64,000 bases of DNA from Escherichia coli phage AZ21. Below, one piece after another: positions 6,533-44,388 of the stretch. The notes beneath the pieces were generated by a model. It was not told the origin of the DNA, did not search any database, and saw nothing but the letters and a program-made list of their open reading frames with translations. Numbering within the stretch: the stretch's first letter is position 1; each line of letters starts with the position of its first letter. The translations under genes and the position numbers were made by a program. Location: sequence record LC788708.1; one strand, written 5' to 3'.

Positions 6533-6607
6533 CGGGGTGTAGTCTAAGGGAGAGGCAGGAGTCTTCTAAATTCCTTTATGCAGGTTCGAATCCTGTCACC
6601 TCGGCCA
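6533..6607 (+). tRNA. tRNA-Arg (anticodon UCU)
   Basis: Acceptor CGGGGTG/CACCTCG, D-stem GTCT/AGGC, anticodon stem GGAGT/ATTCC with loop CTTCTAA, T-arm GCAGG-TTCGAAT-CCTGT, encoded CCA. Confidence 0.75.
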
Positions 6608-6641
6608 ATTTTATTAACTGTAACTAAAACAAAGGAAACAT

Positions 6642-7589
6642 ATGTTTAATACTAAAAATATGAAAGAATTGACTTCTGAGCAGAAAGTAATTCGTACTAT
6701 TAAACGTTGGGGTATTGGTGCTGTAGTTGGTTTAGCAGGTTTAATCCTAGCTTTTAATTCGTATACCATTGTTTCTGATGGTACGGTTAAAACCCAAACA
6801 TTCCTGGGTAAAGTAGACCCTAATCCAGTATTACCTGGTTTCCATCTTGTAAACCCGTTTGCATCTTTCGATACTTTTAGTACGAAAGATATTTCTATGA
6901 AACTGGATAAACTTCAGGTTCCTAGCCAGGATAAGTTTAAGTCTACAGTTGACATTACCGTTATGTTGCAGTTTGATGGTGCTAAAGCTCCTATTAACCG
7001 TGTTAACGCAGGTACTCAGGATCAAGCTCTGAACAAGTACGTTGAAGAGAAGATGCTGTCTACGATTCGTGAGTTTGGTAAGTCTGTACCAAAAGCACAA
7101 GATCTGTTCGACGCTAAGATTCAGGCTCAACTGCAAACCGCTATTCAGCAAGAAGTAGAAGAGTATGCGCGTCCTTATGGCTACACCGTTAAGCAAGTAT
7201 TCCTTCAGGATATTACTCTGCCACCGGTAATCATGGAACAGGTACAAAACACCAAAGTTCGTGAAGAACAAGTTAACGCTGCAAAAGCTGAACTAGCTCG
7301 TGTTGAACAAGAAGCACAGCAGAAAGTTAAGCAAGCTGAGGCTGATCGTTCTGCTCGTGAAAATATGGCAGTAGCTAACGAACGTGACGCAGATGCTAAA
7401 CTGTATGCGGCTAAGAAAGAAGCTGAAGCTAACACCGCTCTGCAGCGTACCATCACTCCAGAGATGATTCGCTGGAAACAGCTGGAAGTTGATATGAAAC
7501 GCGCTGAAAAATATCAGGGTGGCGTTCCTCAGACTGTTGTAGGTACTGGTTATGATGGCCAGATGATTATGGATATGCGTAATAAGTAA
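6642..7589 (+). CDS. SPFH/band-7 (prohibitin/HflC-like) membrane protein
   Basis: 315 aa; N-terminal TM helix then TQTFLGKV...PGFHLVNPF...TVDITVM SPFH-like core and long Ala/Glu/Lys coiled coil; followed by strong terminator. Confidence 0.65.
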   Translation: MFNTKNMKELTSEQKVIRTIKRWGIGAVVGLAGLILAFNSYTIVSDGTVKTQTFLGKVDPNPVLPGFHLVNPFASFDTFSTKDISMKLDKLQVPSQDKFKSTVDITVMLQFDGAKAPINRVNAGTQDQALNKYVEEKMLSTIREFGKSVPKAQDLFDAKIQAQLQTAIQQEVEEYARPYGYTVKQVFLQDITLPPVIMEQVQNTKVREEQVNAAKAELARVEQEAQQKVKQAEADRSARENMAVANERDADAKLYAAKKEAEANTALQRTITPEMIRWKQLEVDMKRAEKYQGGVPQTVVGTGYDGQMIMDMRNK

Positions 7590-7612
7590 TAGTTACACGT
7601 AATCTTCGAAAC

Positions 7613-7647
7613 AAGCCCGCGTTTCCTCCGAGAGCGCGGGCTTTTCT
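7613..7647 (+). terminator. rho-independent terminator
   Basis: AAGCCCGCG-loop-CGCGGGCTT followed by TTTTCT. Confidence 0.75.
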
Positions 7648-7792
7648 GTATTTAAGGCAAAAGAAAAGCCCATAAGTTATTCAACTAAGGTCTTTAGTAC
7701 TTAATTCTTTAGAATCATATACTATTATTGCAGCAACAACGTGCTACCACTAAATGCCCTACGATTTTCCTCTAAAAAGTTAAAAAATTCGA

Positions 7793-7821
7793 TTGCTTGA
7801 ATGCTAAATTCTCTGTATAAT
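7793..7821 (+). promoter_or_regulatory. T5-type early sigma70 promoter
   Basis: TTGCTT-17-TATAAT, leader TTTATAAATTTGAGAGAGG. Confidence 0.65.
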
Positions 7822-7851
7822 ATATTTATAAATTTGAGAGAGGAATCAAAT

Positions 7852-8148
7852 ATGAAACGCATTGTACTTGCATTGACTCTAGTATCTACTTCTGTATTTG
7901 CTGCTCCACAACAGGAACTTTGTCAAGTTCAAGTTTGTAATAAGCTAGAACGATTTACTTTGGATATTTGGTCACACATTAAAGATAATATGGGTGAGCA
8001 ATGTTTTGATATTGTTCTGCCAAAAGAACAAGCTGTTCCTGGTGCTGTTCTCAGCTCAGAATCACGTTGGTGGCAAGGTTCTTCTATCAATCCAACTAAG
8101 AAGTCAGTGACACGTATCAAACAAGTGTATCAGTGCAGTGTTCAGTAA
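7852..8148 (+). CDS. small secreted protein
   Basis: Signal peptide MKRIVLALTLVSTSVFAAP; RBS GAGAGAGGAATCAAATATG; upstream in-frame extension overlaps promoter so start set at 7852. Confidence 0.5.
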   Translation: MKRIVLALTLVSTSVFAAPQQELCQVQVCNKLERFTLDIWSHIKDNMGEQCFDIVLPKEQAVPGAVLSSESRWWQGSSINPTKKSVTRIKQVYQCSVQ

Positions 8149-8156
8149 AATTTCAC

Positions 8157-8185
8157 TTGCTTAATGCCGAAATTTTCTATATAAT
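8157..8185 (+). promoter_or_regulatory. T5-type early sigma70 promoter
   Basis: TTGCTT-17-TATAAT. Confidence 0.65.
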
Positions 8186-8216
8186 ATATTCTATAAATTA
8201 TAGATAGGAGTCATAT

Positions 8217-8735
8217 ATGACTGTTGACGAGTTAAAACAACATCTTTTATCTAGGGGCTTTGATAGTGATAAGTATCACTGTTGGCTCTCTCCACATGGA
8301 TGGTTAACAGTTCCACTGTATGATTTCTCTGGCATGTTACGTGGATATCAAACATATAACCCTAGTGCAGCTAAAGGTCATGGAAAATGTCCTTCTGAAG
8401 CTAAATATTTTACGCATTCTTCTACTCAATGTCTATGGGGTTTAGAAACTCTTACAGGTAATGAAGACCTAGTATTAGTTGCAGAATCTGTATTTAAAGC
8501 TGTGGCACTACACAACGCGGGATATCCCGCACTAGCAATGCTAGGATCTTCCCCTAGCAAAGCACTGCTAAAGCAGCTAAAATTACAACCTTTTAAAGTA
8601 GTAGCCGTAGGCGATAATGATTCTGCTGGTGAGAAGTTTGCTAAAAAACTAAATGGGTTTACTTCCCTCATGGATTTAGATGAAATGAATACAGAAAACT
8701 TGAAAAATTTTCTTGCCATGAAGCTAAATTTCTAA
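8217..8735 (+). CDS. Toprim-domain (DnaG-like) protein
   Basis: 172 aa; VLVAESVFKAVALHNAGYPALAMLGS...VVAVGDNDSAGEKFAKKL resembles primase Toprim E...DxD motif; no zinc-ribbon or polymerase domain. Confidence 0.45.
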   Translation: MTVDELKQHLLSRGFDSDKYHCWLSPHGWLTVPLYDFSGMLRGYQTYNPSAAKGHGKCPSEAKYFTHSSTQCLWGLETLTGNEDLVLVAESVFKAVALHNAGYPALAMLGSSPSKALLKQLKLQPFKVVAVGDNDSAGEKFAKKLNGFTSLMDLDEMNTENLKNFLAMKLNF

Positions 8736-8741
8736 TATAAT
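8713..8741 (+). promoter_or_regulatory. promoter embedded in 3' end of Toprim gene, driving tRNA-Ser/Met
   Basis: TTGCCA-17-TATAAT then TTCATAAATTTGG immediately before tRNA-Ser. Confidence 0.55.
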
Positions 8742-8755
8742 ATATTCATAAATTT

Positions 8756-8849
8756 GGAAGATTAACCCTAAAGGTAAGGGAGCTGTTTGCTAAACAGCCA
8801 GTAGCTGTGGAGACACGGTGTGCCAGTTCGAATCTGGCATCTTCCTCCA
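8756..8849 (+). tRNA. tRNA-Ser (anticodon GCU), type II
   Basis: Acceptor GGAAGAT/ATCTTCC, anticodon stem GCTGT/ACAGC with loop TTGCTAA, long variable arm CTGTG-GAGA-CACGG, T-arm GCCAG-TTCGAAT-CTGGC, CCA. Confidence 0.75.
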
Positions 8850-8854
8850 AATTT

Positions 8855-8932
8855 GGTTCTCAAGCTCATTTGGTATGAGCCGTCGCCTCATAAGCGAAAG
8901 GTAGGCAGGTTCGAATCCTCCGGGAGCCACCA
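8855..8932 (+). tRNA. tRNA-Met/Ile-type (anticodon CAU)
   Basis: Acceptor GGTTCTC/GGGAGCC (G-U pairs), D-stem GCTC/GAGC, anticodon loop CTCATAA, T-loop TTCGAAT, CCA. Confidence 0.65.
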
Positions 8933-8951
8933 AATTAAATAAGGACAACTA

Positions 8952-9140
8952 ATGGAATTATTCATAGTTTCTATTAAATTTGCACAAGATAGAGAACATT
9001 CGGACGAGTTTAAACAAGGGTACAGACTAGTAAAGGCTACATCTGAACTACATGCTATGGACAAAGTAGTAGACTATATGTATAAAGTAGAAGACGTTTA
9101 CTACGTCAATGCTTTAGAAGCCTCAAAAGTAATTAACTAG
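8952..9140 (+). CDS. hypothetical protein
   Basis: 62 aa ORF immediately after tRNA pair, RBS AAGGACAACTAATG. Confidence 0.4.
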   Translation: MELFIVSIKFAQDREHSDEFKQGYRLVKATSELHAMDKVVDYMYKVEDVYYVNALEASKVIN

Positions 9141-9148
9141 GAGACTAT

Positions 9149-9334
9149 ATGTCCAAATTTCAAGAACTCAAGCAAGAGCTAGAAGAGTGTGCCTGCCCAA
9201 AATGCTTCGGAGTAGGTGAGTGGAACGATGCTGAACCCGGTGATACACGGTATAATACATACGTTTGTACATATTGTAATGGTTCTGGTATTAATCCTGA
9301 ATGTGGTATTTCTCTAGACATTGAGCGAGGTTAA
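9149..9334 (+). CDS. small zinc-finger protein (DnaJ-type CxxCxGxG repeats)
   Basis: 61 aa; CPKCFGVGE and CTYCNGSGI motifs; RBS AGGAGACTATATG. Confidence 0.45.
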   Translation: MSKFQELKQELEECACPKCFGVGEWNDAEPGDTRYNTYVCTYCNGSGINPECGISLDIERG

Positions 9335-9674
9335 GATGGATATTTTTACTACTCCGGCAATAAACCTTTTAGGTGTTGGCTTGTTCCAAGCTACGGTGTA
9401 TCGTACTGATGATTCTACTGATGTGGTAACGTTCATCGTACCTGAGTTCTTCCTAGAAAAGTTCTTTGAAGAGTTTGAGCAGTTCCGTGAAGAACACAAT
9501 GCTCATTCCGATATGGAAGATCTAGCAGCTATGTTCCCTGCGGTTTACGGCTATATCTTTGAAGGTAATGGCCTAGATCTTAATAAATCTGAACTCGTTG
9601 AACTTAACTGGGGCATCAATTTTGAAGTTGGCTCTCCATTCCCTCGATATTTCCAGGGTTTAGAGATTCGCTAA
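9321..9674 (+). CDS. hypothetical acidic protein
   Basis: 117 aa ORF overlapping stop of upstream gene. Confidence 0.45.
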   Translation: MSEVKMDIFTTPAINLLGVGLFQATVYRTDDSTDVVTFIVPEFFLEKFFEEFEQFREEHNAHSDMEDLAAMFPAVYGYIFEGNGLDLNKSELVELNWGINFEVGSPFPRYFQGLEIR

Positions 9675-9682
9675 GATTACAT

Positions 9683-9759
9683 GGGGGTGTAATCGAATTG
9701 GCATAGGTACTGGACTTAAAATTCAGGTTTTGTGGGTTCGAATCCCACCACCCCTACCA
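9683..9759 (+). tRNA. tRNA, anticodon read as UAA (Leu-type) on short-variable-arm scaffold
   Basis: Acceptor GGGGGTG/CACCCCT, anticodon stem CTGGA/TTCAG with loop CTTAAAA, T-arm GTGGG-TTCGAAT-CCCAC, CCA; isotype uncertain. Confidence 0.6.
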
Positions 9760-9774
9760 AATTAAGGAAATAAA

Positions 9775-9897
9775 ATGAAAGCTATTAAGAAAGCACTGCG
9801 TAAATTTATGTATTGTCGTTTTCATAGCATCAAGGCTTCAACTAATGGTACTACTTACGATCGCTATGATCCTAAGTTTGGCTTACATTCTAAATAA
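9775..9897 (+). CDS. small hypothetical protein (40 aa)
   Basis: Short ORF with RBS AAGGAAATAAAATG right after tRNA. Confidence 0.3.
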   Translation: MKAIKKALRKFMYCRFHSIKASTNGTTYDRYDPKFGLHSK

Positions 9898-9910
9898 CTG
9901 GAGAAAACAA

Positions 9911-10117
9911 ATGGCTAATCCTGAAATTACGGCACAACGCTTTATGCTGAAAGGAATTATTGCTGAAGCAGGCATGACAGAAGAAGTTGCAGATTTTCAA
10001 AAGCAATTCCTCAATATTCTCACTCAAGCCAAAGAGCTAGGAGAGAAAGAACATGGCGCGGCTATTATGGCAATCACATTGGTTGGGCTTGATCTGGCTG
10101 AAGAATCAGGAGTTTAA
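9911..10117 (+). CDS. hypothetical protein
   Basis: 68 aa from ATG with RBS GGAGAAAACAAATG; in-frame upstream extension lacks RBS. Confidence 0.4.
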   Translation: MANPEITAQRFMLKGIIAEAGMTEEVADFQKQFLNILTQAKELGEKEHGAAIMAITLVGLDLAEESGV

Positions 10118-10206
10118 CTCCTCCAAGCAGAAATTTTAAAAATGTACTTGCTTTTTGCTTAAGATTTCTGCTATAATAGTTATATAAGTTGATGAGAGGA
10201 ATCAGA

Positions 10207-10482
10207 ATGTTAAAACGTTTTGCAGCAACTGGTATTGAAAGCTCAGTATGTAAATCCTGGGGTGGTTGGGAAGGTGAGATCGAGTGGCTTCAGTTCTACA
10301 ATGTAGAACTTCTTCCAGAGATCAAAGCTCAATGTATTGAGGCTGGTATGGCTCCTGATGCTACGGCTGATGTTGAAATCAGCATGAATAAGCTAGAGGG
10401 TCGAGTAGTCACTGTTACTGATGAAGGTGAAGAGGTATTCGAACTTCCATTCACTTTGAAAGTCACTCCTTCATTTGATTAA
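10207..10482 (+). CDS. hypothetical protein
   Basis: 92 aa; promoter and RBS GAGAGGAATCAGAATG. Confidence 0.45.
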   Translation: MLKRFAATGIESSVCKSWGGWEGEIEWLQFYNVELLPEIKAQCIEAGMAPDATADVEISMNKLEGRVVTVTDEGEEVFELPFTLKVTPSFD

Positions 10483-10518
10483 CTGATACAGCACTGAGCA
10501 AGTTCTTTAAAATTTGAC

Positions 10519-10547
10519 TTGCTCAGTGCCTTAAAACTTGATATAAT
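10519..10547 (+). promoter_or_regulatory. promoter upstream of tRNA-Tyr
   Basis: TTGCTC-17-TATAAT. Confidence 0.55.
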
Positions 10548-10612
10548 ATTTATCTAATTTGGAAACATATTTAAAAGTGTTTAAATGAGAATTTTTGAAT
10601 ACTTCTAAATAT

Positions 10613-10700
10613 GGGCGTTTATTCCGTAAGTGGTAGCGGAGGGGATTGTAAATCCCTGGTCATTGCGACTCGAGTGGTTCGACTCCATTAACGCCCACCA
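10613..10700 (+). tRNA. tRNA-Tyr (anticodon GUA), type II
   Basis: Acceptor GGGCGTT/AACGCCC, anticodon stem GGGGA/TCCCT with loop TTGTAAA, long variable arm, T-loop TTCGACT, CCA. Confidence 0.7.
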
Positions 10701-10717
10701 AATTAAAGGTAAAGGAT

Positions 10718-10909
10718 ATGTATATTGATCGGATAATTCAAGAAGCTGCAAATAGGGGTATTATACAGTTGGGTTCACCCGCTGATATAAATAAAGATCT
10801 AATATTAGAAAGCCTCACATTTGGTACAGCTAACTTTGGTCGCGATAGTAATCGTCGATATAGCTTGAAGTTATCTGCACTATCTTTTATCAAGTATAAC
10901 AAATTATAG
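10718..10909 (+). CDS. hypothetical protein
   Basis: 63 aa ORF between two tRNAs, RBS AAAGGTAAAGGATATG. Confidence 0.3.
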   Translation: MYIDRIIQEAANRGIIQLGSPADINKDLILESLTFGTANFGRDSNRRYSLKLSALSFIKYNKL

Positions 10910-10983
10910 TTAGTTGGCAGAGTGGTTATGCACCTCCTTCATACGGAGCGACTACAGTGGTTCAACTCCACTACTAACTACCA
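10908..10983 (+). tRNA. tRNA-Met/Ile-type (anticodon CAU)
   Basis: Acceptor AGTTAGT/ACTAACT, anticodon stem CTCC/GGAG with loop TTCATAC, T-arm AGTGG-TTCAACT-CCACT, CCA. Confidence 0.65.
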
Positions 10984-16170: not shown

Positions 16171-16922
16171 TGTCAGTATTAGTCGGTTTACATGGTGAAG
16201 CTGGTTCGGGAAAAGATACCGTTGCAAAATTAATTATCGATTGGTGTAATGACACGTATCCAACGTGTTTATCCCGTCGTTATAGTTTTGCTAAGCCCGT
16301 TTATGAACTTGCATCCGTAATCCTCGGTGTAACTCCGGAGTTTCTAGGAGAGCGCAGGGGAAAAGAGATTGACCAATGGTTTACTGTCACACAATCTCAA
16401 TTGGAGCGAGCCAGAGATGTGTGGTTTAAGTACGGTATCGATAAGTTTGAAGACTTCTCGTACATTTGGCCTATTTTTGAGGAAAAGTATCTTAATCCTC
16501 AACAACTTATCTCAGAGAATAAAGAAGACGGATTTTATAGTTTATTTATTTCTCCGAGAAAAATGTTACAGCTCGTAGGGACAGAGCTAGGAAGGCAGCT
16601 GGTGCATGAACGCATTTGGCTCATAATTCTGGAGCAATCCATCGCTAAAGACGACCCAGATGTCGCCGTAATAACAGATGTTAGATTCCCCAATGAAGGA
16701 GAGTTACTCAGAGAAACAAACCATTTAGATATGGATTCTTTGATAGTAAATGTAGTACCCGCTGAGCAGAAGTTCACTATTAAATCAGATCATCCATCTG
16801 AAAGTGGTATTCCTGCAAAATATATTACTCACGAATTAGTTAATAAATTCGATGGTATCAATAACCTTAAACTAGAAGTTTATAACTTCTGTGACTTAGA
16901 GCTAGAACCACTAGTTGGATAA
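16170..16922 (+). CDS. dnk: deoxynucleoside monophosphate kinase
   Basis: 250 aa; P-loop GLHGEAGSGKDT and VITDVRFPNEGE motif typical of phage dNMP kinases. Confidence 0.7.
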   Translation: MSVLVGLHGEAGSGKDTVAKLIIDWCNDTYPTCLSRRYSFAKPVYELASVILGVTPEFLGERRGKEIDQWFTVTQSQLERARDVWFKYGIDKFEDFSYIWPIFEEKYLNPQQLISENKEDGFYSLFISPRKMLQLVGTELGRQLVHERIWLIILEQSIAKDDPDVAVITDVRFPNEGELLRETNHLDMDSLIVNVVPAEQKFTIKSDHPSESGIPAKYITHELVNKFDGINNLKLEVYNFCDLELEPLVG

Positions 16923-16934
16923 TCAAGGATCGCT

Positions 16935-17534
16935 ATGACTAATAAAAAAGAAGAAAAGACTAACCTGTTTCACTCCATTCGCCAATCTAACGAGTATACC
17001 TTTTTCTTTGATGAAGAATTAGGCCCGCCTGATGAATACCGTGATTTATCAATGGTACTTATGCAGGCAAATGAGGACGACGAAATTAATCTGATGATTA
17101 ATGGCCCAGGTGGTTATGTTGATACTGCTGCACAGTTAGCTAACTTAATTGCTAATTGCCGTGGAACAGTTATAGGGCATCTGATTGGTCCTAGTGCTTC
17201 TGCTTACTGCACAATTTTCCTATCCTGTCATGGATGGGTAGTACATCCACATGCTACGTTAATGGGACACACGTTCTCTGGCGGATTCTGTGAGAAAGGT
17301 CAGGAAATCAAGAAAGCCTATGAATCTTACAACAAGTTTGTAGAAGATATGATGCTAGATGTCTACTATCCCTTTTTCTCAATAGATGAAATCGACGAGA
17401 TGGTAAAAGACAACAAAAATATCTATCTAGATAGCAAGGAAATCCATAAGCGTATTGAAATCTTGGCGAAATATCGATCTGAGCAATATAATAAAGCCCA
17501 GTTACCTCAATCCGAGGAGTACAACGAAGAGTAA
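16935..17534 (+). CDS. ClpP-like serine protease family protein
   Basis: 199 aa; INGPGGYVDTAAQLANLI...GPSASAYCTIF resembles ClpP nucleophile region; followed by strong terminator. Confidence 0.5.
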   Translation: MTNKKEEKTNLFHSIRQSNEYTFFFDEELGPPDEYRDLSMVLMQANEDDEINLMINGPGGYVDTAAQLANLIANCRGTVIGHLIGPSASAYCTIFLSCHGWVVHPHATLMGHTFSGGFCEKGQEIKKAYESYNKFVEDMMLDVYYPFFSIDEIDEMVKDNKNIYLDSKEIHKRIEILAKYRSEQYNKAQLPQSEEYNEE

Positions 17535-17544
17535 GTAATTTTAA

Positions 17545-17575
17545 GCCAGGGTTTAACGACCCTGGCTTTTCTTTT
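17545..17575 (+). terminator. rho-independent terminator
   Basis: AGCCAGGGT-loop-ACCCTGGCT followed by TTTTCTTTT. Confidence 0.75.
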
Positions 17576-17637
17576 ATCTAAAATTCTTCTTGACAACGAC
17601 AAAATTTTGTGCTCCAAAGAAAATCTTTAAAAACACA

Positions 17638-17666
17638 TTGTAATTTTCCTCCAAAATTAGTATAAT
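17638..17666 (+). promoter_or_regulatory. promoter for holin-endolysin operon
   Basis: TTGTAA-17-TATAAT followed by GAGGAGG RBS. Confidence 0.5.
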
Positions 17667-17690
17667 GGTACTGGTTAGAGGAGGTTACAA

Positions 17691-18347
17691 TTGGAAAAGT
17701 TCTTACAATTATTAACGGTACTGCTCCAAGAAGCGAAAGATCCAGCATCGCTTCTTAAACGTCTGCTAACTATCTTAGTTGCTGTCATTATTTTCTTATT
17801 TGTTAGTAATACTAGCGAGGTGATGTCATTCTTAAAGACTTTCTCCACGTCTGCGGTTCTACAGGATGTTCAAACTCAAAGGATAGATAACTTTCCTAAT
17901 GTAGCTAGAGAAAAGAGCATGGTACTCTTTTCTCAAACGGGTGCGGATGCTGTTTTTGTAGTCAAGTATAAACCCGATGCCATTAATGATTATTCTAACA
18001 TTATTGCATGGGAAAGCAATGCGCAATTAGATAGGGCTGACTTGGCCGATAAAGCAGTAAATAAAACGTCTGAGCTATACAGACGTCACTTAGAGGGCTT
18101 TAACTACGCATCGGATTTAAGTGTAAGAGTAAATAAATATACGGGGTTAAATATACCTGCGTTTAAGAACGTTACTTTTAATTACATATACACTTGTCCA
18201 TATTTCAATCTAAACAATATCTATGCTGGATATATTGGTATTGCTTGGAAAGATAATCCTGTAGATGCAGCCGATTCTGAGAGATTTAAGGAATATTTAA
18301 CAAAGCTCTGTTCTCCACAACAGAGATCTTTAGGTAGATCAATATGA
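17691..18347 (+). CDS. putative holin
   Basis: 218 aa, single N-terminal TM helix, immediately upstream of and overlapping endolysin; TTG start behind GAGGAGG RBS. Confidence 0.55.
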   Translation: MEKFLQLLTVLLQEAKDPASLLKRLLTILVAVIIFLFVSNTSEVMSFLKTFSTSAVLQDVQTQRIDNFPNVAREKSMVLFSQTGADAVFVVKYKPDAINDYSNIIAWESNAQLDRADLADKAVNKTSELYRRHLEGFNYASDLSVRVNKYTGLNIPAFKNVTFNYIYTCPYFNLNNIYAGYIGIAWKDNPVDAADSERFKEYLTKLCSPQQRSLGRSI

Positions 18348-37803: not shown

Positions 37804-37883
37804 TAGTTGATTTATTATTGCCCGCTGATAGATAGCGGGCAATGCTGGATAAACTACATCCCTTTAATGGAGAACGTAACAAA

Positions 37884-38618
37884 ATGAATCAAGTTAAAAC
37901 GAATATTTCCCGTAACTTCCCGCATATTTCCCGCGTCATGATCTGGGATCTTGATGGCACTATCGTTAATTCATTCCATCGTGTAGCGCCTTGCTTTGAT
38001 AGTGAGGGTAATCTAGATTTAAATAAGTATAAGAATGAGGCTTGCAAACATGATTTAATAATGCAGGATACTTTATTGCCTTTGGTGGAATATATGCGCC
38101 AATGCATGAATGACGCAAATACTTTAAACATTATTTGTACCGCTCGATTAATGAGCAAATCGGATTATTATTATTTGCGCAAACAAGGCTTGCGAGGGCG
38201 TGGGGATAGCAATATCCGCGTGTTTTCCCGCGACACGCTGCATAAATATTTTGAAGCTGATAAGGTTAGCGAGATATACCACAGTAAAGACGCAGTTTAT
38301 AAATCGTATTACTTTGAATTATTTAAACAGCTATATCCGAACGCTGATTTCACAATGATTGATGATCATAAAGGTGTATTATCAGCGGCGGCGTCATACG
38401 GATTTAAAACGCTAGACGCGCAAGCCGTTAACGATATTCTATCAATCGGCGTGGCATTGATAGGCGGAACCTTTATTGATGAATCTCTCGATGATGATAA
38501 TGATTATCAGTTCCTAGCCGATCGATTGAAATTATGTTGGGAAAGTATGACCGAAGAAGAACGCGCAGAATATAGTTGCAGCCCGCAACAATATATTGAG
38601 AAATTAAAAGTTGCGTAA
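37884..38618 (+). CDS. dmp: HAD-family 5'-deoxyribonucleotidase (dmp-like)
   Basis: VMIWDLDGTIVNS (HAD motif I DxDGT); RBS GGAGAACGTAACAAAATG; pre-early context. Confidence 0.65.
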   Translation: MNQVKTNISRNFPHISRVMIWDLDGTIVNSFHRVAPCFDSEGNLDLNKYKNEACKHDLIMQDTLLPLVEYMRQCMNDANTLNIICTARLMSKSDYYYLRKQGLRGRGDSNIRVFSRDTLHKYFEADKVSEIYHSKDAVYKSYYFELFKQLYPNADFTMIDDHKGVLSAAASYGFKTLDAQAVNDILSIGVALIGGTFIDESLDDDNDYQFLADRLKLCWESMTEEERAEYSCSPQQYIEKLKVA

Positions 38619-38782: not shown

Positions 38783-39028
38783 TTAGCGCATAGAAGGGTC
38801 ATCAAACCTGTGCTCTGGTCTGAACTCACGGAATCTCTTCCACGACGCCCGAGATCCATCAGACCACTCCCGCTCAAACTCCGCACGTTTCTCGTCAAAC
38901 TTCCGCTCCCTTTCCGCAATCTCTCGCGTCACCCCCGCGATATATTCCCGATGCTTGTTAATTGCCGCAGTTGTCCCGAAAACTCCCGCGAGTATCCCGA
39001 TAATAAAAGCAATTACAATACTAAACAT
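38783..39028 (-). CDS. small membrane protein
   Basis: 81 aa, N-terminal TM helix then charged tail. Confidence 0.4.
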   Translation of the reverse strand: MFSIVIAFIIGILAGVFGTTAAINKHREYIAGVTREIAERERKFDEKRAEFEREWSDGSRASWKRFREFRPEHRFDDPSMR

Positions 39029-39215
39029 CTAATTCCCTCTCAATTTGCAGAATACGGGTACTATCACAACGTTGCAGTAGTGCTAGCTTTTCTAGAGTAA
39101 CTTGTTGTTGTTTTACCTGAGCTTCTAGAGTTTTTAGGCGGAGATACACGATACGAGAGACAATGAGGATTACCCAGACTAATATTACCATTAGTGTAAT
39201 TGCCGCTTCCATCAT
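39021..39215 (-). CDS. small membrane protein
   Basis: 64 aa, TM helix then coiled coil. Confidence 0.4.
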   Translation of the reverse strand: MMEAAITLMVILVWVILIVSRIVYLRLKTLEAQVKQQQVTLEKLALLQRCDSTRILQIERELDV

Positions 39216-39318
39216 TTACGTTTCTCCAATAATAAGGTTTCAATTCTAGCTAAATGATTATCTAAAATACATTGTCCAATAATCACAATCCCTAGTAGTG
39301 CAATAATTACCCATTCCA

Positions 39319-39510
39319 TTAAATCCACCCCGCCATAGCTGCTAACCAAAAACCTACGAAGATTAGGAATAATACAAAACCAAATCCGTAAATATTAATC
39401 CACGCTTCATATACTTCTCCGCGTCTGTTCTTTCTTTTATTTGACATATCTTTCATGCTCCAATAAATGTGGTATCTGGAATATTTTACAGTTTGTGCAC
39501 AACCAACCAT
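39319..39510 (-). CDS. small membrane protein
   Basis: 63 aa, C-terminal TM helix. Confidence 0.4.
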   Translation of the reverse strand: MVGCAQTVKYSRYHIYWSMKDMSNKRKNRRGEVYEAWINIYGFGFVLFLIFVGFWLAAMAGWI

Positions 39511-39623
39511 GCTTGTGACTTCCTAGAAGGACTTCTCATTTTCTTGCATAGTGGTTTCTGCCAATATACCATCCAAAAAATAAAAAATTTAGTTTACTTG
39601 GATGTCGTTTTGCTTTATACTAA

Positions 39624-39890
39624 TTACAGGTAGTTAGATTGCTCTAGTTTAAATTTACAATCACCGTATTTAAGATCAAACTGACTGAGATCCCACCACC
39701 CAAACTTAGTACGGAGCTGTACTACTGGGAAGCGATCTCCCTTAATACGAACTTTTTGAACTTTGAGGCCATAATGTTCTTCTCCTGCACCTCCAAAAGA
39801 TTTTACAAATCCCGTACAAAATGGTTTGGGAGCAGGTGCACAACCAGATAACATAACTGCGGCAACTAGTGCAATCACAAACTTTTTCAT
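39624..39890 (-). CDS. llp: lipoprotein, Llp-like superinfection-exclusion (receptor-blocking) candidate
   Basis: 88 aa; signal peptide with lipobox LSGC; divergently placed immediately upstream of receptor-binding protein gene as in T5. Confidence 0.6.
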   Translation of the reverse strand: MKKFVIALVAAVMLSGCAPAPKPFCTGFVKSFGGAGEEHYGLKVQKVRIKGDRFPVVQLRTKFGWWDLSQFDLKYGDCKFKLEQSNYL

Positions 39891-39975
39891 ATTTATCTCT
39901 CCATTTCTAATTTATGAATCTATTATAGCAAAATAGAGGGATGAAAGCAAATACATTTTTATAATAGGAGATTAT

Positions 39976-41733
39976 ATGGGTTTTTTCGCTGGTAAGTATA
40001 GCGATGGTAAGACCGTACTATCTTTAAATACTGAATCTGGTGGTGACATTAATCGTCACTATAGTCCAAATGCCAATAGTATTTTTCATAGTGATATGCC
40101 ATTTGTCCTAGTTGATGGTACTTATGAGTCTGGGTTAGGTGATGCCGGTAATGGGTTTTTTGTATGTCAGATGCCCTCTGACATAATAAATATTAAATCT
40201 AACGATCCTGGTAGAGTTATACTAACTGCTATTGAAATTAATGGTACTCACAGAGCTTTTCTTAACGGTACTCAGAGTAAAGTAGGTCAAACTATAGCTG
40301 CCACTCAAGCAGATCCTTTTAGATCTTTTGCTAGTGTTTCCCAGACTAGTGGATTTGCATTTGGTAATAGCCTGGCATCTGGTACATATAACTATAATCC
40401 ATCTATAGGGCATGAAGAATCTATTTCTAGAAATGGTACTGGTGGAACCACCCTACATAGTACGTATCATGGTATAGTTAGGCCAGGTGCAGGAGCTCCA
40501 GTAGGGGTTACTGTTGCAGAAGCTTTTGCACAGTTGGGTTTTCCTACTAATAGTAGTACAGTACCTATAGATGGTAATAATCAATATTACTGGGACCCAG
40601 GATGGATGTCTCCTTTAGGATCAGCACACAGAGGGCACGATTGGTTTTATGTTTGTAACTCTAACATACGTGGGTATGGTGGGGTAAGACAAGGTCTTCC
40701 TGGTAGTGTAAATACTATGTATCATGATGGTGGCAACAGATTTGTTTGTAGGGGTTCTACAACTAATTTAGCTAATCAATCTAGTGATTCTACAATACTA
40801 CAAGATTGGTATAACATAACTCCTACTAAGGTTATTTGGTACGTCTTGAATTTAAGATATTCTGGCGGCAATATGAGTATCTCTGGTAATCCTTTTACTG
40901 GTTCAGATATTCTTATATCTCCTTCTAATTTCATAATTAAAGGGGTTAGTCTTCCCAATACTGGATACAAGTTTATTAACCAGAACGCTTTCGGTAACTT
41001 AGGTTATAGACCAGATATGGAATATATTGGAAATAATGCAGCGTACACTGGGGCCTTCGGAGATACTACTGCAAGGTGTGAACTTGTAGGTTCTAGTAAT
41101 GGGGGTTTATGGTCTCCTGTGGACTATGGAGGGGCTAAGTCTCAAATTAGTATTTACAAATTCGGAGCTGGTAAGCAATGGTACGTAAACTCTAATGATA
41201 ATACTATCGGTAATGAACACGGGGTTGTTTGGGGGCCTTCAGCAGTTCCACTACGACTTTTTAGCGGAAATGTTGGTAGTTCTTACATGGGGGATGATAT
41301 TACTCCCAGCTATCCAGGAACTGGAGATAGATACGTTGGTTTATCAACTATTGGGCTAGGTATACCGGGTGGCAATGCTACCGTAATTCTTACCACTGAA
41401 GTTATATCAGGTAATCTTAACTGCGCGGGTGTTCCCGCTAATACATGGAATAACGGTGTATTTCAGGTTCAAGGAAGAAGAGCATATAGTTATAGTAATG
41501 GGGATGCAATATTTCATCAGATTTTAACATTACCAGTAGGGTATTTAGTACCTTTTCATACTACATCTGCTTTTAGATACACACCTAACAATGCCCTAAG
41601 TAGAAATAGTTTTATATACACTGCTAAAAATCTGGGGAATGGAAATGTAGAGCTAGGGGTAGTTATGCACGTAAGTTTAGGTAGTGCAGTTTTCCTACCT
41701 AGATTAAGAGTAACAGTTCAACGCCTAACCTAA
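39976..41733 (+). CDS. oad: receptor-binding tail protein (pb5-like)
   Basis: 585 aa; position next to llp-like gene; N-terminus (MGFFAGK...IFHSDM) and C-terminus (VQRLT) resemble what I recall of T5 pb5, with a diverged central region. Confidence 0.6.
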
Positions 41734-41743
41734 AGGAGGATAT

Positions 41744-42226
41744 ATGGCAAATGATGTATTAGTTCCCGATCTCATGTCTCCCGAAGGCATGGATGTTATT
41801 GAAGCCTATTTACAGTGCGGTAGTGATGTTCCTGCCGCCGCTCGTAGTCTTGGAATGTCCGAGATTGCATTTCGTGATATAATGAATCGTGGGGAAGTTA
41901 AAAACTATCTCAACGATATCTTTATGGAAAGCGGCTTCCGTAATCGTGACCGCTTATTCGGAGTTCTTGATGAAGTTATCAAACGCAAGTTGGAAGAACT
42001 CGAAGAAACTGGCATGGGTTCTGACCAGGATATCATGGATATTCTCTGGAAGGCGCACAAGATGAAGATGGAAGAAATGAAAATGATGGTAGAACTGGAG
42101 AAAGTGAAGGCAGCAGCCCGTACTCCGGCTAACCAGACTAATATTCAGAATAATATTATTGCTGGAAGTGGTGACGAAAACTATATGAATCTTATTACCG
42201 CTCTAGCAGGAGGAGGTAAGAGATAA
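41744..42226 (+). CDS. terminase small subunit (putative)
   Basis: 160 aa, HTH-like [15 protein letters not shown], immediately upstream of and overlapping terminase large subunit. Confidence 0.5.
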
Positions 42227-43542
42227 TGAAAGTCTCTAGAGATTATATTAACACCACAGATGTTATTGACTTTGGTATTGACAAACGATTTTTTCGTCTG
42301 CCAGTCTCTAGCATTCTAGCTCAAGAGGGGATTACACCTAACGCCCCTCAGGTTGCAATTATTAATGCGTTAGAAGATCCTAGACACCGTTTCGTAACTG
42401 CGTGTGTATCACGTCGTGTAGGTAAGTCATTCATCGCATATACACTTGGGTTCCTAAAACTTCTGGAACCCAATGTGAAGGTGCTGGTAGTTGCACCTAA
42501 CTACTCACTGGCTAACATAGGTTGGTCACAGATTCGTGGTCTTATTAAGAAGTATGGATTACAGACTGAACGTGAGAACGCAAAAGATAAAGAGATTGAA
42601 CTAGCGAATGGTTCTCTCTTTAAGCTGGCTTCTGCGGCGCAGGCTGACTCCGCGGTTGGTCGTTCATATGACTTCATCATTTTTGACGAAGCAGCGATTT
42701 CCGACGTTGGTGGTGCAGCTTTCGATATTCAGTTACGTCCTACTCTAGATAAGCCAAACTCTAAAGCTCTGTTTATTTCCACACCTCGTGGTGGTAACTG
42801 GTTTAAAGAGTTCTATGAGAAAGGATTTAACGAAACTCTACCTAACTGGGTATCTATTCATGGTACATATCGTGATAACCCACGTGCTGATCTGAACGAT
42901 ATCGAAGAAGCGCGTCGTACTGTTAGTAAAAACTACTTCCGTCAAGAATATGAGGCTGACTTCTCTGTATTCGAAGGTCAGATCTTTGACACCTTCAATG
43001 CTATCGAACATGTTAAAGACCTCAAAGGTATGCGCCACTTCTTTAAAGATGATGAGGCTTTCGAAACATTACTTGGTATCGACGTTGGTTATCGTGACCC
43101 TACAGCAGTTCTTACTATCAAGTATCACTATGATACTGATGTTTATTACGTACTGGAAGAATATCAGCAAGCTGAAAAGACTACAGCTCAACACGCTGCT
43201 TATATCCAACACTGCATAGATCGTTATAATGTTGATCGTATATTTGTAGACTCCGCCGCTGCTCAGTTCCGTCAGGACTTAGCATATGAACATGAAATCG
43301 CTTCTGCTCCTGCTAAGAAATCTGTCCTAGATGGTCTGGCATGCCTACAAGCACTGTTCCAGCAAGGTAAGATCATCGTAGATGCTTCATGTACCTCATT
43401 GATCCACGCCCTAGCGAACTACAGGTGGGACTTCCAGGAGGGCGAAGAGAAATTATCACGTGAAAAACCACGTCATGATGCGAACTCTCACCTTTGTGAC
43501 GCACTGCGTTATGGAATTTACTCAATTTCCCGTGGGAAATAA
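42226..43542 (+). CDS. terL: terminase large subunit
   Basis: 438 aa; Walker A CVSRRVGKSF, Walker B YDFIIFDEAA, C-terminal nuclease-like acidic motifs. Confidence 0.85.
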   Translation: MKVSRDYINTTDVIDFGIDKRFFRLPVSSILAQEGITPNAPQVAIINALEDPRHRFVTACVSRRVGKSFIAYTLGFLKLLEPNVKVLVVAPNYSLANIGWSQIRGLIKKYGLQTERENAKDKEIELANGSLFKLASAAQADSAVGRSYDFIIFDEAAISDVGGAAFDIQLRPTLDKPNSKALFISTPRGGNWFKEFYEKGFNETLPNWVSIHGTYRDNPRADLNDIEEARRTVSKNYFRQEYEADFSVFEGQIFDTFNAIEHVKDLKGMRHFFKDDEAFETLLGIDVGYRDPTAVLTIKYHYDTDVYYVLEEYQQAEKTTAQHAAYIQHCIDRYNVDRIFVDSAAAQFRQDLAYEHEIASAPAKKSVLDGLACLQALFQQGKIIVDASCTSLIHALANYRWDFQEGEEKLSREKPRHDANSHLCDALRYGIYSISRGK

Positions 43543-43713: not shown

Positions 43714-44388
43714 ATGGGTCGACAAAAGCTAACAATAAAAGATATAAATACTAGATTAGCTGATCGTGGAATCCAAATTGTCGGTGAATATGTAAACCAA
43801 CGTACAAAAACAGTATTTAAGTGCCAAAGAGCACACGTTTGGGAAGCAACGCCACATTCTATACTCCATATTAAGAGGGGTTGCCCACACTGCGCACCTA
43901 ATACTATATTGCTAGATGAAGTTAATAACAGGATATCCAGTATAGGGTATACACTGTTAAATAACTATACTAATGCAAAAACAAAACTACATCTACGCTG
44001 TAATAATGGTCATGAATGCGATATTACCTTAGATGGGTTGACGCAAGGTAGAAGATGTCCTTATTGCTCCCTTAAATGGGATAATGGTGGATTTCTCTAT
44101 ATCATGTCCTCTTCTAGGGGTACTAAAGTAGGTATAGGTTTATACCCCGAGAAGCGATTGAACGAGGTTAAAAGAGAGTCTGGATTTTCAGATCTATACT
44201 TATTTACCACGTATCACTTACCTGATAGAGAAACTGCTCTAGATTTAGAAAAAGAAGTCCATAGAGAATATTATAATAAAAACTGTGGGTTTTCAAAATT
44301 TACAGGAAGCACAGAATTTTTTAATGTTGCTCCAGAGGATATAGTAGTCTTTCTAAGTAACTTTGGATTGGAGGAATATGGCCACTAA
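43714..44388 (+). CDS. GIY-YIG-like (T5orf172-type) nuclease with N-terminal zinc ribbons
   Basis: 224 aa; CPHC/CPYC zinc-ribbon pairs then GFLYIMSSSRGTKVGIG...R...E pattern resembling GIY-YIG. Confidence 0.5.
   Translation: MGRQKLTIKDINTRLADRGIQIVGEYVNQRTKTVFKCQRAHVWEATPHSILHIKRGCPHCAPNTILLDEVNNRISSIGYTLLNNYTNAKTKLHLRCNNGHECDITLDGLTQGRRCPYCSLKWDNGGFLYIMSSSRGTKVGIGLYPEKRLNEVKRESGFSDLYLFTTYHLPDRETALDLEKEVHREYYNKNCGFSKFTGSTEFFNVAPEDIVVFLSNFGLEEYGH

Follow-up and report, generated by a model that had tools for sequence, protein, structure and literature searches.

Two T5-like phages, BF23 and T5 itself, provide the reference points for the locus analyzed here. The hrs-llp module of BF23, in which the gene for a tail-tip receptor-binding protein (RBP) is paired with a divergently transcribed gene for a lipoprotein, Llp, was reportedly described by Mondigler et al. 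in 2006. The corresponding pair of T5 consists of pb5 (gene oad) and Llp, for which structural work provides the mechanism. According to that account, pb5 stands at the end of the straight fiber, binds its transporter irreversibly and thereby triggers DNA ejection, while T5 Llp acts from the periplasm, where it binds the FhuA plug in a non-native conformation and makes the extracellular loops EL7 and EL8 fold over the site used by pb5 (PMC9586334). The same authors propose that such "jamming" may apply to TonB-dependent transporters in general, and they put T5 Llp at about 20% identity to Cor proteins, disulfide included (PMC9586334). Functional data on the BF23 type come from DT57C. Resistance to this phage arose through btuB-inactivating mutations, which designated BtuB as its receptor, and its cloned Llp inhibited BF23 as well as DT57C while T5 was not inhibited (PMC4728585). 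The DT57C module, with a mosaic Hrs and a conserved BF23-type Llp, was interpreted as the product of recombination within the module, BtuB specificity being kept (Golomidova et al. 2016, PMC4728585).

We analyzed a window of 64,000 nt, the whole stretch of DNA under study, from Escherichia coli phage AZ21 (LC788708.1), which contains a gene pair of this kind. With a probability of about 0.9, we read this cassette as the host-recognition and receptor-blocking module of a Tequintavirus, of the BF23/DT57C "BtuB type". Gene structure, protein families, Llp identity and the clade of the RBP were taken from the sequence, and BtuB dependence and blocking from published work on proteins near-identical or related to these. 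The module is a common and already characterized one, not a new divergent pair; its type, its receptor, its exclusion protein and the combination of a mosaic Hrs with a conserved Llp have all been published.

The comparison with known systems runs from near identity to remote homology. The same RBP allele (95–98.6% identity over the full length), together with an identical or near-identical Llp, occurs in Bas31, JLBYU40, Cit2, AKFV33, phiLLS, SSP1 and some 90 further T5-like phages. The RBP of Bas31 differs from that of AZ21 at 12 residues, and only scattered substitutions separate the phages that share the allele, which at an identity of at least 95% is found in about 95 deposited phages. DT57C and DT571-2 likewise combine an Hrs of mosaic makeup compared with BF23 with a near-identical BF23-type Llp (PMC4728585), but DT57C has another RBP allele, 73% identical to that of AZ21, and an Llp that is off by one residue of the signal peptide. 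With BF23 (DQ097178), the locus shares gene order, divergent orientation, a 100% identical Llp, the hexamers of the llp promoter, and both the N-terminus and the ...QRLT C-terminus of the RBP, whereas the BF23 RBP is longer (595 against 585 aa) and only 67–68% identical, with the lowest identity in residues 91–270 (42–60%) and 56–64% in residues 451–540.

T5 pb5 and T5 Llp (PDB 8b14 and 8a8c) have in common with the AZ21 pair the genomic slot, the architecture, homology over the full length of the RBP, the PHROG of Llp, and a pair of cysteines. The differences are larger, as the two RBPs are 30% identical (BLASTP, full length, E 6e-56), the receptor is FhuA in T5 as opposed to the BtuB proposed for AZ21, and the two Llp proteins resemble each other only marginally in pairwise comparison (30% over 67 aa, E 1e-4). 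Finally, the Cor lipoproteins of T1/phi80-like phages are connected to both Llp types through PHROG 1119, which bears the Cor name and matches AZ21 Llp as well as T5 Llp. FhuA is the target of the Cor proteins, which belong to unrelated siphoviruses, whereas the predicted target of AZ21 Llp is BtuB.

The gene pair and its products

The llp and RBP genes are transcribed divergently from either side of an 85-nt intergenic spacer (Table 1), as read from the list of open reading frames and the sequence. An earlier note on this DNA had recognized a lipoprotein with lipobox LSGC encoded divergently from a 585-aa RBP, a description with which the open reading frames, the sequence and a match to the Pfam lipid-attachment site LPAM_1 all agree. 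The order llp, divergent RBP gene, small and large terminase subunit genes is also that of T5, DT57C, SPC35 and S116.

Table 1. Features of the llp-RBP locus of AZ21 (positions in the 64,000-nt window)
Feature	Position	Strand	Description
llp	39624..39890	minus	88-aa precursor, predicted receptor-blocking (superinfection exclusion / lytic conversion) lipoprotein
Lipobox L-S-G-C	39840..39851	minus	Residues 14-17; Cys17 = predicted acylated first mature residue; +2 = Ala
llp Shine-Dalgarno GGAGAG	39897..39902	minus	6 nt ahead of ATG at 39890; read from sequence
llp promoter	39922..39950	minus	-35 TTGCTT (39950-39945), 17-nt spacer, extended -10 TGC-TATAAT (39930-39922)
RBP gene Shine-Dalgarno AGGAG	39966..39970	plus	5 nt ahead of ATG at 39976; read from sequence
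RBP gene (hrs/oad-type, pb5 family)	39976..41733	plus	585-aa predicted tail-tip protein, BtuB-clade allele
RBP conserved N-terminal part	39976..40245	plus	Residues 1-90; 80-100% identity across BtuB-type RBPs, 96-100% to SPC35
RBP hypervariable part	40246..40785	plus	Residues 91-270; 42-62% identity to BF23/SPC35
Terminase small subunit	41744..42226	plus	PHROG 3802, E 2.2e-90; directly 3' of RBP gene
Terminase large subunit	42226..43542	plus	Pfam Terminase_6N + Terminase_6C

The family of the RBP is defined by PHROG 4815 ("receptor binding tail protein"), which covers residues 1–585 (E 1.4e-272), and by the PDB chains of T5 pb5 in 8b14 and 8a8c (E 8.5e-50); no Pfam family matches the protein. 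Judged by these alignments, the RBP is a full-length pb5/Hrs homologue and not a chance resemblance. With 585 aa against 640 aa, it is 55 aa shorter than T5 pb5, as the earlier note had stated. The accompanying picture of conserved ends and a diverged middle holds in part. Residues 1–45 are indeed the best-conserved part relative to T5 pb5 (53%), and identity falls to 13–27% in residues ~91–270; the C-terminal likeness, however, lies mainly in the common ...QRLT motif (the last 15 residues are 40% identical), and an internal block at residues ~271–360 returns to 37–53%.

The distribution of variable segments can be compared with the T5 structure. Gln115 and Phe170, described there as the tips of the pb5 loops L1/L2 that are inserted into FhuA (PMC9586334), align to residues 114 and 170 of the AZ21 protein, and most of pb5 loop L4 (570–590) is missing from it. 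Since the L1/L2 tips fall inside the most variable stretch and most of L4 is deleted, the variable segments would fit receptor-contact loops, and residues 91–270 likely form the receptor-contact region. More speculatively, residues 1–90 may take part in the attachment to the straight fiber pb4.

The N-terminus of Llp, MKKFVIALVAAVMLSGC, has the features of a lipoprotein signal peptide with the lipobox LSGC, and LPAM_1 is found on residues 1–18 (E 5e-5, 23.9 bits against a cut-off of 20). By the general Lol rule, alanine at position +2 leads one to expect sorting to the outer membrane. Llp is identical at 88/88 residues to that of BF23 (AAZ03643), which is annotated in DQ097178 as "receptor-blocking protein, putative lipoprotein", and 99% identical to that of DT57C, where the sole difference lies in the signal peptide and the mature proteins are therefore the same. 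About 180 phage records contain Llp at an identity of at least 95%. The mature protein is invariant across the compared phages with the AZ21-type RBP allele, and in many phages it accompanies at least three RBP alleles.

BF23-type Llp and T5 Llp have been called non-homologous in the literature (PMC4728585). Nevertheless, the "Cor superinfection exclusion protein" family, PHROG 1119, matches the whole AZ21 Llp (E 1.8e-26), and when only the mature parts are used it still matches both AZ21 Llp (2.6e-16) and T5 Llp (1.4e-11; gene at 2188–2421 of the T5 stretch used for comparison). Moreover, mature AZ21 Llp has two cysteines, Cys9 and Cys62, one near each end of the chain; in T5 Llp, the structural account describes a Cys11-Cys58 disulfide that joins the two chain ends (PMC9586334). 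Because the mature parts of both proteins match PHROG 1119 and have this terminal cysteine pair in common, the two are likely to be distantly related members of the Cor/Llp family. A phmmer search of the PDB with Llp gave chance-level matches only, none at E<0.1, so that plain phmmer fails to detect T5 Llp. AlphaFold2 models of the free Llp are inaccurate, according to the T5 structure paper (PMC9586334).

The llp promoter was recognized only through comparison with the BF23 annotation. Its hexamers are identical to those annotated as the -35 and -10 of llp in DQ097178, and the intergenic sequences are near-identical. A generic sigma-70 promoter and terminator scan of positions 39300–42300 detected no promoter-like site in the intergenic region, and fewer sites overall than in shuffled sequences. 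The scan missed the llp promoter, the -35 of which by our reading fits the consensus at only 3/6 positions, below the scan cut-off of 4.

Receptor clade, mosaicism and competing readings

The receptor of the AZ21 RBP was approached by comparison with RBPs from T5 (FhuA), H8 (FepA), and BF23, DT57C, SPC35, S116 and Bas31 (all BtuB), to which those of JLBYU40 and Cit2 were added. In a neighbor-joining tree, the AZ21 protein falls inside the BtuB clade, where it groups closely with Bas31, JLBYU40 and Cit2, DT57C being sister to this group, and long branches part it from T5 and H8. The multiple alignment gives 97.9% identity to Bas31 (DaisyDussoix), 97.1% to JLBYU40 (receptor not stated) and 96.8% to Cit2 (receptor disputed), followed by SPC35 (73.3%), DT57C (73.2%), S116 (70.8%) and BF23 (68.2%; 67% by BLASTP), and at a distance by T5 (32.5%; BLASTP as above) and H8 (31.4%; 27.9% by tblastn). 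The RBP of Escherichia coli phage AZ23 is 100% identical to that of AZ21. Phage vB_SenS_S124 was considered as the FepA-type S124 and rejected: it is a separate isolate from China, and both its RBP, at 72% identity to that of AZ21, and its Llp are of the BF23/SPC35 type.

Clade membership is informative in this subfamily, in which, as the BASEL study has it, three RBP clusters predict receptor specificity (PMC8594841). In the S5 Table of the same study, Bas31 is entered with BtuB as its terminal receptor on E. coli K-12; the methods state that every isolate was spotted on surface-protein mutants and do not explicitly tie the Bas31 entry to a mutant assay of this phage (PMC8594841). On the strength of these alignments and of that entry, the receptor of the AZ21 RBP is almost certainly BtuB, the vitamin B12 transporter. 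The earlier note had proposed that the receptor is not FhuA and that the lipoprotein is the exclusion protein to match. The first proposal gains support from the placement in the BtuB clade, the near identity to Bas31 and the distance from T5 pb5, for high full-length identity to T5 pb5 was not seen and members of the BtuB clade align at 68–98%. The second is supported by the identity with BF23 Llp, as an Llp of this kind blocks BtuB-dependent phages and not T5 (PMC4728585). What counts against the BtuB reading is that residues 91–270 of the RBP are only ~50–60% identical to BF23 and SPC35, so that by sequence a shifted specificity is conceivable.

The cassette as a whole is mosaic. Its DNA flanks are 82–92% identical to T5, and the llp-hrs cassette itself is essentially unalignable to T5. 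Relative to BF23 and DT57C, llp is 95–97% identical at the DNA level, as against 49–82% for the RBP gene, where identity drops across the first ~300 nt of hrs. Against SPC35, residues 1–90 and 316–405 of the RBP are 96–100% identical, and residues 91–270 only ~50–60%, a pattern that suggests within-gene recombination among BtuB-type alleles.

The most direct challenge to BtuB comes from Cit2. FhuA has been inferred as the receptor of this phage, the Llp of which clusters with those of BtuB phages, and a "decoupling" of RBP and Llp is discussed on that account (PMC12980165). As the RBP of Cit2 is 97% identical to that of AZ21, the same could be said of the latter, which would then bind FhuA like T5 pb5, with the BF23-type Llp as a mismatched partner. 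The inference for Cit2 hangs, however, on a stated identity of 96.9% to T5 pb5 (PMC12980165), whereas BLASTP of the Cit2 protein (OP745948.1, gene at 16561–18318 of the stretch compared) against T5 pb5 (AY543070) gives 30%, and the remaining identities given in the same paper (66.7% to BF23, 73.2% to DT57C and 27.7% to H8) fit a protein of the BtuB clade. These figures weaken the case for FhuA, and the assignment published for Cit2 in 2026 looks like a reference mix-up. Furthermore, Bas31, with its nearly identical RBP, is listed with BtuB, and an Llp without effect on the phage's own receptor would give no gain, yet the mature protein is invariant across these phages. We consider FhuA as the receptor of AZ21 highly improbable. 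Still less probable is FepA, the receptor of H8, in favor of which speaks its standing as the third known terminal receptor of the subfamily, as given in two reports (PMC8594841, PMC12980165). The H8 RBP (AC171169; 637 aa, at 40329–42239 of the stretch compared, in the second half of the draft) is only 27.9–31% identical to that of AZ21 and sits on a separate long branch, and no AZ21-type Llp was found in either searched part of the H8 draft. No RBP was found in the first half of that draft, and tblastn revealed neither an AZ21-type nor a T5-type Llp in the half that holds the H8 RBP. The exclusion protein of H8, if any, must therefore be of another type.

A third reading retains BtuB but loosens the bond between the two proteins. 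In a recombinant cassette, the RBP might still use BtuB through different contacts, to the point that the BF23-type Llp would no longer be fully protective and the pair would be partly decoupled. Both the unequal conservation of llp and the RBP gene relative to BF23 and DT57C and the block structure of the RBP relative to SPC35 are what such a history would leave. Nevertheless, just such a case has been tested in DT57C, and there Llp was still protective (PMC4728585). In addition, the retention of one mature Llp alongside at least three RBP alleles points to ongoing selection, and a periplasmic Llp acting on the receptor need not follow changes in the RBP loops. Partial decoupling is thus an unlikely state for the AZ21 pair, if somewhat less so than FhuA or FepA as the receptor.

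Proposed action of the module

If the AZ21 module works as its homologues do, a single copy of the RBP would stand at the end of the central straight tail fiber, by analogy with T5 pb5, and would bind BtuB irreversibly, DNA ejection being triggered as in T5. Llp would be made early, from its own sigma-70 promoter, then exported, cleaved and acylated at Cys17, and its lipid anchor would finally hold it in the inner leaflet, on the periplasmic side of the outer membrane. From there, it could bind the periplasmic face and the plug of BtuB and cause the extracellular loops to fold allosterically over the RBP site, as T5 Llp does with FhuA. Infected cells and lysis debris would then no longer adsorb phages of the same receptor type.

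The periplasmic and allosteric action on BtuB is an extrapolation from T5 Llp on FhuA, the one pair for which it has been demonstrated. It would explain how one invariant Llp can serve at least three diverged RBP alleles. More tentatively, an RBP with its own version of the contact loops might contact other extracellular loops of BtuB or, on some hosts, turn to an additional receptor, with the one invariant periplasmic Llp blocking all alleles allosterically without competing at the binding site; this extension we hold to be doubtful, albeit more plausible than a partly decoupled pair. A further receptor on S. Infantis is a speculation of the SIA3lw authors.

Genomic neighborhood and database records

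Over the 20 kb surrounding the locus, and again at its two ends, the window matches phage AZ23 (LC788707.1) with 100% identity. AZ23 is given in its GenBank record as a Tequintavirus from sewage in Japan, and a literature search for AZ23 returned no paper mentioning this phage. In the AZ23 record, the RBP, Llp, both terminase subunits and their neighbors are all annotated as "hypothetical protein". The first two can now be annotated, as an RBP of the BtuB type and as Llp. For receptor prediction in phage cocktails, RBP alleles of the AZ21 type should be treated as BtuB-type.

Several features of the surrounding DNA were recorded along the way. A dmp-like gene lies at 37842–38618, ~1 kb from llp, and SPC35 has a dmp-like gene inside its terminal repeat. 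Because a gene that belongs to the terminal repeat in SPC35 is found so close to llp, the terminal repeat of the 104-kb AZ23 record appears to be collapsed. Downstream of llp, at 38783–39510 on the minus strand, small open reading frames of 63, 45, 64 and 81 aa match PHROGs 8596, 5851 and 6447 (the last named "membrane protein") and hold the position of T5.159-T5.162, which are noted in the T5 record as single-transmembrane proteins. On the other side, shortly past the gene for the large terminase subunit (43714–44388, plus strand), a 224-aa open reading frame resembles a homing endonuclease, as it combines a treble-clef zinc finger and T5orf172/MUG113 domains (Pfam) with a match to PHROG 681 ("endonuclease"); DT57C is without an annotated gene at this place. 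Finally, six tRNA genes (Arg, Ser, Met, Leu, Tyr, Met) are clustered at 6533–10983 on the plus strand of the window, a usual feature of T5-like phages.
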